Positions 9,860 to 11,544 of a stretch of DNA of 64,000 nt are shown one piece after another. Location of the stretch: assembly GCA_963706715.1 (NCBI GenBank), contig CAVPNI010000001.1:352001-416000 (forward strand). Reading direction: 5' to 3'. Origin of the DNA: an uncultured Verrucomicrobiae bacterium (GTDB lineage: Bacteria > Verrucomicrobiota > Verrucomicrobiia > Chthoniobacterales > Xiphinematobacteraceae). A model generated the notes under the pieces. The model saw only the letters and a program-made list of their open reading frames with translations, was not told the origin of the DNA and did not search any database. How positions within the stretch are numbered: the first letter of the stretch is position 1; each line of letters begins with the position of its first letter. Position numbers and translations under genes: made by a program.

Positions 9860-9992
9860 TTCGTGGAGGCTCGTTTTTCAAGAAATCGCAACTGTAGAGG
9901 TAAATCTTACGGTTTTTTTATCTCGAATATTCCGGTTGCATGAAATATCACCTGCCAACCAAAAATCGCGAACTACCCACTAACTGAATGGA

Positions 9993-11300
9993 TTAAATAT
10001 TGGGGACCAGGGAATAACCATGTTTTGTTGCGAGTTTAGAAAGAAGGCGTTTTTGGGAGAGAGCAACCTGCTCATGGTAAACTTCGAGGCCCCTTTCAAC
10101 GTAGGGGAAGCCGTGTACCATAACGCGCCAAAAAAGGACGGCCAACTTACGAGCCAGGGCTTTATTAGCAACTAATCCACCGCGCCGTGCACGCAATCGT
10201 CGATAGAAACCGCCCAGAGCCTTGTTTACACTGCGGGCAAGAGAACGGGCTACCACACAGAAAATGCGACCTGCTCGATTGCGACTTCTAGAACATCTAG
10301 CTTGCCGCTTACCACTTTGCTTGCTGCCAGGAGCTAATCCAAGCCAAGCAGTAAAATGCTTTTCACTTTTCCAGCAGGTCAAATCGGTACCTACTTCACC
10401 AATCAACTCGAGTAGACCATAGTCGGTAATACCGGGTAAGAGCGTCGGATCCTTTCCCTTACAAAGAGTCATAAGTAAACGGTGGAGATCTTTAATTTGA
10501 GGAGCATTGCAGCCTCCAATCCTTTTTGTTGCGCTGGGAGTTGAGGGAGGCTGAAGGCCTTGAACACTTTCCTGTAATAGCTCTTCTATGGCTTGGTCAC
10601 ATTGCCTAACGAGCTCCTGGCAAAAATGCCATGCATCATAAGCTTGTCTAAGGGCAAAGAGATGCTGTTTGGTCCAAGTCCCACGCAAACTCTCAATTAC
10701 TCGATGGCGCTTTGCCCTCTGAATCTGGAGGCTACAAAGAGAAAGCAACACTTGAGGATCACGCTCGCCCTTTAGAATGGCTTCAATCACCTTAAGTCCA
10801 CTAACTCCGGAAAGTGAACGAATTACGTCATGAAACTTGATATTCATGCGTTCCAAGGCCTTCTGCATATGCTGTACATGGCTAGCTGCTGCTCTGATAT
10901 GATCGCTTCGCAAACGCAAATAATCCTGCAACTGCCGAATATTGGCCTGAGGTACAAAACCACCTTTTAATAGGCCATGAGCATGCAAAGTTGCTATCCA
11001 TTGGCAGTCGGCCATATCCGTCTTCCTTCCAGGTACATTGCGTACGTACTTACCATTAACCACTTTTATCTCTATGCCGCTCTCCTCTAAAATCTCATAC
11101 AAGGCTATCCAATAAACTCCAGTAGCTTCCATTGCCACCGTACACACCTCTTCTTGAAGTAGCCAATCGCGCAGGGCGTGCAACTGACTGGTAAAGGTTC
11201 CAAAAACCTTAGGTGCTCCTCCGGCAATAGAAACATGCATGTGTTCACTGCCTACGTCTATTCCTGCCGCTTTTAAATTTAGTATGGTCAGATTTTTCAT
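9993..11300 (-). CDS. IS110-family DEDD recombinase/transposase
   Basis: GIDVG, MEATGVYW, GRKTDMAD and WLGLAP...SG motifs. Confidence 0.95.
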   Translation of the reverse strand: MKNLTILNLKAAGIDVGSEHMHVSIAGGAPKVFGTFTSQLHALRDWLLQEEVCTVAMEATGVYWIALYEILEESGIEIKVVNGKYVRNVPGRKTDMADCQWIATLHAHGLLKGGFVPQANIRQLQDYLRLRSDHIRAAASHVQHMQKALERMNIKFHDVIRSLSGVSGLKVIEAILKGERDPQVLLSLCSLQIQRAKRHRVIESLRGTWTKQHLFALRQAYDAWHFCQELVRQCDQAIEELLQESVQGLQPPSTPSATKRIGGCNAPQIKDLHRLLMTLCKGKDPTLLPGITDYGLLELIGEVGTDLTCWKSEKHFTAWLGLAPGSKQSGKRQARCSRSRNRAGRIFCVVARSLARSVNKALGGFYRRLRARRGGLVANKALARKLAVLFWRVMVHGFPYVERGLEVYHEQVALSQKRLLSKLATKHGYSLVPNI

Positions 11301-11322
11301 TTTTTAGTTATCAGTAACTTGT

Positions 11323-11500
11323 AAGGTGTGCTCAGGCCAAAGCTGCCGGTCCGTTGACATATTGTAGACAAATCTACCCAGCGGGAAACTTTGCGTTCTC
11401 CAAAAAATACGTGTGCAGCGGACCGGAGCCAATCTACGATGCGGGCTTTTTACGCTCCATAGAAACGCCGGCCATTTTACAGCTTGACCTGAGCAACCTT
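11323..11500 (-). ncRNA. Candidate IS110 bridge/seek RNA
   Basis: Outer stem 11323-11345/11480-11500 enclosing two stem-loops, each carrying aatctacNNNgcggg...ctcca. Confidence 0.6.
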
Positions 11501-11544
11501 ACCCTACTCAGTTAGTGGACTAAAATACGAGTCCTTTGGACTTG

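Follow-up and report, generated by a model that had tools for sequence, protein, structure and literature searches.

The window, the whole 64,000-nt stretch of DNA analyzed, contains at positions 9993..11300 of the minus strand a gene for a DEDD recombinase of 435 amino acids. Matches to Pfam (PF01548 and PF02371) and to NF033542 (222 bits against a cut-off of 140) confirm that it is an IS110 recombinase, as the earlier note had stated. A DEDD RuvC domain and a Tnp domain with the catalytic serine are both present, together with the motif GL-P----SG. In an alignment of 16 relatives D15, E58, D95 and D98 are invariant and S329 is nearly so. A phmmer search of the PDB found no match for the recombinase; a profile search of the same database gave weak matches to IS621 and ISCro4. 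The AlphaFold model (pLDDT 83.9) has a fold closest to that of IS621, at 16-17% identity; it confirms the fold but provides no test of the folded donor proposed below. A long C-terminal helix (residues 398-426; window ~10023-10109, minus strand) lies beyond the part aligned with IS621 and is kept across the clade. It is a candidate reader of the inverted repeat.

The gene belongs to an IS110-family element that extends, core to core, over 9973..11550 (minus strand), with noncoding ends of 250 bp upstream and 20 bp downstream of the gene. Exactly this span is common to 11 copies in the genome, and in all of them the common sequence runs from 9973 to 11551; counting the shared CTA once, the element is 1576 bp long. 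The core dinucleotide is CT, or AG in the sense of the recombinase. At the downstream end it lies at 9973..9974 (plus strand), where the metagenome contig X1 departs from the element; at the upstream end it lies at 11549..11550 (plus strand), and a second contig, X2, matches through 11558 before it diverges. The earlier note had also seen CT at both ends. This holds for 9973-9974, but its upstream CT at 11520-11521 is internal, because all 11 copies match to 11551, and its upstream end is 29 nt short. The comparison of copies that it had suggested as a check on the ends thus gives 11549-11550 as the upstream core, and with this end the circle junction that it had predicted, ttagtgga-CT-acccact, is wrong. 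No circle joints were found among the contigs of four sequencing runs. There is no duplication beyond the core; all 11 copies have the same core at both ends and a specific target. A DNA search of 40 relative genomes detected no full copy of the element, and a 59-bp piece in one of them only (G010).

In the window the element splits a glycosyltransferase-34-like gene near its start (9940..12199, plus strand; the PF05637 match in the Pfam search is weak). Deletion of 9973-11548 restores one frame of 227 amino acids over 9940..12199, whereas the ends 9973 and 11521 fail to do so, since the length between them is not a multiple of three. In the relative genome G002 there is no element between the same genes, and the intergenic region is not alignable at the base level. 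The region 11654-12871 contains tandem glycosyltransferase-34-like genes, the first of which is severed from its start by the element. The N-terminus of this first gene seems to be derived from a heptamer repeat, which is absent in G002.

A host heptamer repeat provides the target. One unit of it, T(A/G)GTTCGTAG in the recombinase sense, lies at 11549..11558 (plus strand), and each of the 11 insertions obeys T(A/G)GTTCG-TAG in that sense. The motif occurs at 126 sites in the genome versus 12 expected, and in empty paralogues from this host repeat family the two flanks are joined and the core is present a single time. To the right of the insertions stands TT in eight cases and three purines in the other three; in 115 empty sites this flank is TT in 47, three purines in 31 and something else in 37. 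Genome-wide there are 74 arrays of at least three heptamer units (for example C1:307048-307241 of G000, and 48854-48874 in the window). Twelve pairs of arrays are inverted and face inward, 97-478 bp apart, and no pair faces outward; a search for a gene between them, which covered 8 of the 12 pairs, found no frame >46 amino acids. Such arrays resemble a family of miniature elements that end in heptamers.

The noncoding region upstream of the gene is predicted to encode a bridge RNA (11318..11495, minus strand, ends approximate). In agreement with the earlier note, this region is structured: the folding z-scores are -4.7 for the sense and -4.4 for the antisense strand, and 0 of 200 shuffles were equally stable on either strand. 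An Rfam search returned one chance match only (E 0.42). Three scans for relatives resulted in 231 loci, of which 171 are distinct (window included). Among the 63 loci with at least 53% identity, 54 could be parsed and 52 were kept; these fall into 43 clusters below 85% leader identity. The anchors for the comparison were motifs picked by eye in the relatives, and the inner repeat arm of the window was placed by hand. One locus, L088, is apparently mis-anchored and was left out of the analyses of column pairs, the hairpin, the target-flank motif and window pairs; a further five loci are missing from the hairpin analysis (n=37), three because their target match is <6 and two because their flanks are short. 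The consensus RNA of 38 relatives has 31 pairs, 16 of them with changes on both sides, and leaves the guides mostly unpaired.

The 3' guide of the target loop, ATCGTAG (11434..11440, minus strand), matches TTCGTAG at 6 of 7 positions in 11/11 copies. The earlier note had counted 5/7 against a reconstructed flank; the true flank is CTACGAA. Over the family this guide matches the left flank with a mean of 6.59/7, compared with 4.04 in permutations that allow an equal best-of choice (n=41). In the donor loop the 3' guide, TGGGTAG (11374..11380, minus strand), is identical to its donor site at the downstream end (9973..9979, plus strand), as had been noticed before. By itself this identity has a 2% chance in a shuffled 200-nt region; the family mean is 6.95/7 against 5.62 in permutations (n=38). 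The 5' guide of the target loop, GCGTTT-CT (11461..11468, minus strand), pairs weakly with the right target flank. A CT occupies its place in 36 of 43 relatives and its 2-nt match is 1.34 versus 1.00 permuted, and it suits just 3 of the 11 genome sites even when wobble is allowed. The motif repeated in both loops is found as described in the earlier note, which had taken the loops from the antisense strand. Within each loop the top-strand match comes ahead of the bottom-strand match, on the assumption that the strand convention is the same as in the IS1111 report. The covariation of the guides with target and donor across 38-41 relatives bears out the earlier proposal of a two-loop bridge RNA with donor and target loops around a CT/AG core. 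We are nearly certain that an upstream bridge RNA directs the element to the heptamer.

Some features of the target are not explained by the RNA. No RNA segment was found that accounts for the TT right flank in 8/11 sites or for the T at -7, which is present in 11/11 sites and mismatched to the guide. In the relatives the target flanks show the donor repeat motif at -10..-8, outside the guide (T in 24/31, C in 21/31), and position -8 tracks the element's own donor (5 of 3000 permutations). This donor-type motif suggests that the protein itself probably reads a short motif, TAG/TGG here, which is common to the donor repeat and the target. Such a readout explains why the 11 sites all lie within the 126 of 1046 TCGTAG sites that have the motif. 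In several relatives (L110, L102, L117 and the downstream flank of L005) the insertion site is a donor-like end or the element stands in tandem with a second copy, an outcome expected of half-match insertion.

Five of the genome copies are full, and six have one common deletion of 200 bp (11251..11450, minus strand) and three substitutions. Lost with it are the donor loop, the two 3' guides and codons 1-17, among them that of D15. The six deleted copies nevertheless occupy six different cognate targets and they have kept both ends; hence they probably moved in trans, and they represent a natural case of a 1.4-kb cargo mobilized in this way. The non-autonomous partner of ISPpu9, MITEPpu9, is a precedent for movement in trans (PMC12288879). 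At G000:C1:147879-150859 a full and a deleted copy stand in tandem with two heptamer units between them. Two deleted copies (G000:C4:373050-375816 and C1:781267-782634) carry secondary insertions at the same point, equivalent to window position 10942. The insertion is a multi-copy 247-bp repeat in both, accompanied in one of them by a multi-copy 1.4-kb element with an open frame of 462 codons, and both copies additionally lack 268 bp. Two metagenome contigs encode a variant RNA with one substitution and one inserted base (window 11390 and 11481), both outside the guides.

The fourth guide, which the earlier note could not assign, is the 5' guide of the donor loop, G1 (CGTATTT; 11405..11411, minus strand). 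Its agreement with the DNA next to the core is at the level of chance in three registers (2.1-2.6 versus 2.2-2.6, n=41). Instead it matches an internal site (11523..11529, minus strand), 20-26 nt inside the upstream end. At a fixed offset the mean match in 43 clusters is 5.30/7 compared with 3.21±0.22, a value reached in 0 of 10000 permutations; a scan in the complementary orientation gave no peak above 2.7-3.2 of 7. An unbiased scan of 12900 RNA-DNA window pairs (n=37) placed all of its top 9 on the G1/internal-site diagonal, which also holds four of the top 14 among 4687 column pairs. Since permutation is blind to kinship, changes were also counted on a recombinase tree with 35 members. There 6/6, 3/3, 2/2 and 3/3 changes at the last four positions of G1 are shared with the site (14/14), against an average of 0.20-0.25 for control column pairs; the first three positions either do not exceed the controls or vary too little. 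A distant set, anchored separately (48 of 68 loci parsed), replicated the result: 46 clusters at 35-53% identity have a G1 match of 5.0 versus 3.24±0.15. Among the mismatches between G1 and the site, 39 of 57 are wobble-compatible and 4 are the reverse. However, 37 of the 57 fall at two positions and the bias is largely inherited; the distant set does not show it (7 vs 11). G1 is predicted to be paired in the RNA of the window alone and unpaired in the family consensus. We consider it very probable that G1 reads the internal site. As the site has the same sequence as G1, G1 would pair there with the plus strand of the window.

The internal site is framed by two further elements of structure. 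One is a perfect 11-bp inverted repeat with a downstream arm, IR-R, at 9977..9987 and an internal arm, IR-L, at 11508..11518; a repeat of this length was reached by 0 of 2000 shuffles. The earlier note had described these arms correctly, but with the upstream core at 11549-11550 they are not symmetric-subterminal: the repeat is lopsided, one arm standing 2 nt and the other 30 nt from its core. This arrangement is a property of the family. The repeat is 9-11 bp long, IR-R agrees in 8/9 or better in 38/38 relatives with flank, AG sits 2 nt beyond the outer arm in 37/38, and the spacing from the core to the inner arm is 28-36 nt in 41/41 with flank. The internal site lies 3 nt from the inner arm in 39/43. 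The other element is an inner hairpin, AGTCC-AAA-GGACT (11530..11542), which starts 6 nt after the core, between the core and the internal site. Its stem covaries: the first pair is at core+6 and Watson-Crick in 35/37 relatives, and a 4-bp stem scores 3.05 versus 1.25 permuted. Its wobble pairs show no strand bias (5 vs 4), and the plus strand folds more stably in only 21/32. When the window junction is joined as a circle and folded as a single strand, it forms the repeat stem, a bubble and the inner hairpin. In 34/37 relatives both arms of the bubble, the one with the core and the one with the site, are 10 nt long; in the window the site arm is 11 nt (10x11). Across the bubble 2.9 of 10 positions pair, about the number expected by chance.

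The sequences show directly where the ends and the core lie, what the two 3' guides are and that G1 covaries with the internal site; pairing, folding and strand use we infer. We consider it likely, with a probability of about 0.6, that this is an active IS110 element whose RNA steers insertion into the heptamer and reads the element's own ends as a folded single strand. The donor would resemble an integron attC site and the plus strand would fold back so that IR-L and IR-R pair with each other, while the inner hairpin closes the far side. Between these two stems a bubble of 10x10 nt (10x11 here) would stay open, one of its arms carrying the CT core and the opposite arm the G1 site. In the geometry of IS621, each guide of the donor loop would then bind one arm of this pre-opened pseudo-duplex. 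Each IS621 loop opens 14 bp: its 3' guide pairs with the strand that bears the core and is the first to be cut, its 5' guide with the other strand (PMC11208158). Mapped onto this geometry, the plus strand would be the first-cut strand; the bubble together with three repeat pairs opened by invasion and one pair of the hairpin would give 14, comparable to the 14 bp of IS621; and G1 would stand in the same register to a conserved TGG as the 5' guide of the target loop. Because the second arm has no core, productive exchange would be confined to the core-bearing arm, which fits the single-strand copy-out reported for IS621 (10.64898/2026.08.31.748434) and the single-strand copy-out and top-strand insertion of CazIS110 (10.1101/2025.10.25.684509). 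Excision would peel one strand off as a circle. As neither donor guide relies on flanking DNA, both would be satisfied in the integrated element too. Insertion would be a single-strand exchange that is completed by replication or repair. Integron attC sites undergo a single-strand exchange of this kind, finished in the same way.

Several observations speak against a fold-back. Among those given above are the wobble bias that the distant set lacks, the weak covariation of the first three G1 positions on the tree, the missing strand bias in the hairpin, the greater stability of the plus strand in only 21/32, and the predicted pairing of G1 in the RNA of the window alone. CazIS110 favors a double-stranded donor ~20-fold at one junction (10.1101/2025.10.25.684509). 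The orientation of the copies is a further point. The G-rich strand is taken as the leading strand. The sense strand is the G-rich strand in 8 of 11 copies versus 55 of 115 empty sites; these counts give no support to a replication-strand bias and, if anything, oppose a lagging-strand version of the model.

G1 could alternatively pair with the internal site on double-stranded DNA. One strand would then carry two R-loops and the inner hairpin alone would be extruded, while IR-L, unpaired with IR-R, would be a second arm for the protein to bind. We regard this as unlikely. It predicts the same covariation of G1 and site, and the covariation of the repeat suits protein binding as well as pairing, in view of the target-flank motif at -10..-8. 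Moreover, of 15 mismatches in the repeat, 13 share a single position and none of these is a wobble pair. This alternative leaves the equal 10 + 10 arm lengths and the fit of the register unaccounted for.

It is somewhat less probable still that the internal site together with IR-L serves as an operator, at which the RNP represses the promoter of bridge RNA and recombinase, and that the donor is read by one guide as a half-match. A putative promoter element, the -10-like box TAGGGT (11501..11506, minus strand), is located just past the inner repeat arm, 16 nt from the internal site, which lies upstream of it. Many relatives, judged by eye, have TA-nnn-T after the inner arm; a sigma-70 scan found no full promoter. 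Recombination on a half-match has been reported for IS621 (10.64898/2026.08.31.748434). On the other hand, an operator requires no fixed distance to the core. In ISPpu9 the transcription start is ~84 nt from the end (PMC8450116), so that the 43-bp A box is upstream of the -35 region, and this box is kept on the MITE (PMC12288879).

An ordinary bridge system, in which the G1 match is left over from an old duplication and the hairpin terminates read-through, is improbable in our view. The relatives do have common ancestry, and the window hairpin with its T-run scores as terminator-like (0.4 expected by chance). Yet G1 and its site change in concert on the tree, their match persists down to 35% protein identity, and most relatives have no T-run after the hairpin. 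Finally, the ends 9973 and 11521 with symmetric subterminal repeats would put a CT 1-2 nt outside each arm, but they have a negligible chance, given that 11/11 copies and contig X2 continue to 11551 and that the longer end alone restores the host frame.

The element shares with IS621 and ISCro4 the RuvC-DEDD and Tnp serine fold, the two-loop upstream RNA, the CT core and a repeat-derived target (PMC11208160, PMC11208158). It differs from them in a protein that is 16-17% identical and ~110 amino acids longer, in the guide order, which is reversed relative to the gene, in its long lopsided repeat and in a second donor guide that mismatches the DNA beside the core. In IS621-type elements the bottom-strand match comes first and the end repeats are 2-3 bp only (PMC11208160); the long upstream noncoding end is the IS621-type trait found here, whereas the core-adjacent right donor guide, the strand order and the short repeats are absent. 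The IS1111 group (ISEc11, ISPa11) has 7-17-bp repeats near both ends, an RNA downstream of the gene and a transposase of 330-350 amino acids (PMC11187229). In common with this group the element has the top-strand match first, the GL-P----SG motif and a long inverted repeat (PMC11187229), but its RNA is upstream, its protein has 435 amino acids and its inner arm is 30 nt from the end. The mixture of IS110 and IS1111 features proposed in the earlier note therefore stands for the upstream RNA (IS110-type), the IS1111 guide order and the long repeat, and not for an IS1111-type subterminal pair. By its defining features the element is a member of the IS110 family, ISPpu9-like, and neither IS621-type nor IS1111-type. 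Outside the family, attC sites and the ends of IS200/IS605 are recognized as folded single strands, of which one strand is exchanged. Their enzymes are unrelated, and it would be an RNA guide that reads the two arms of the present element.

It is debated whether the intermediates of IS110 elements have one strand or two, and by what means the ends are read during excision (10.64898/2026.08.31.748434, 10.1101/2025.10.25.684509); this clade would offer an answer encoded in sequence, and ISPpu9 has working assays. Should the model be correct, ortholog screens with ~25-nt core-centered donors (10.64898/2026.10.21.760802) would get the donors of this clade wrong, and programmable insertion of a folded single-stranded donor might be feasible. 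The best-studied bridge-RNA editing tools, by contrast, read an ordinary double-stranded site. RNA-guided recombination of structured single-stranded DNA is absent from the literature searchable here. No folded or split donor was found in it, including PMC13626964, 10.64898/2026.08.14.744561 and 10.1101/2025.05.14.653916; the search covered accessible text. The covariation maps in Fig. S12 of 10.64898/2026.10.21.760802 could already show the signal between G1 and its site. In the accessible part of 10.64898/2026.03.19.712850 the hairpin is in the target, not in the donor.

The closest described relative in layout is ISPpu9 of Pseudomonas putida, which, at 36-37% identity, shares an AG core, a structured upstream leader, a conserved A box of ~43 bp with an inner palindrome and a short B box (PMC12288879, PMC8450116), a repeat (REP) as target and a non-autonomous partner, on which the 43-bp A box is kept whole (PMC12288879). 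It differs in the target sequence and in a longer leader; ISPpu9 also has an antisense RNA, Asr9, over its leader. In the accessible text ISPpu9 is described as lacking end repeats and its guides are unassigned (PMC12288879), so the repeat between A and B box and the G1 match are our reading. Taken from the supplement, the A box parses as AG+6+hairpin+7+3+9, and the B box has the opposite arm. A search with the A-box motif yielded 86 stretches, of which 80 were retrieved and 17 had a recombinase match; these recombinases are mostly 35-38% identical over their full length. In nine ISPpu9-like loci the target guides match 7/7 and G1 matches 4-5 of 7 (5-7 with wobble), a G1 result that speaks for consistency only, since the search itself fixed the site.

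The published experiments on ISPpu9 bear on the folded donor in both directions. Deletion of the A or the B box abolishes circles (PMC12288879). A mutant of the A-box palindrome still forms normal circle junctions in end-point PCR, and mutated bases just after AG misdirect the choice of end (PMC12288879); these bases would be unpaired in the folded-donor model. The latter two results count against a strict form of the model. We judge the chances to be even that a widespread clade including ISPpu9 uses a donor loop that recognizes a single strand folded into a hairpin, with a 10x10 bubble built in, the excised single-stranded circle being the substrate for insertion. Short elements with a left and a right box and no recombinase occur in L266 (~1975-2165) and in the downstream flank of L117; they are possible MITEs of this clade.
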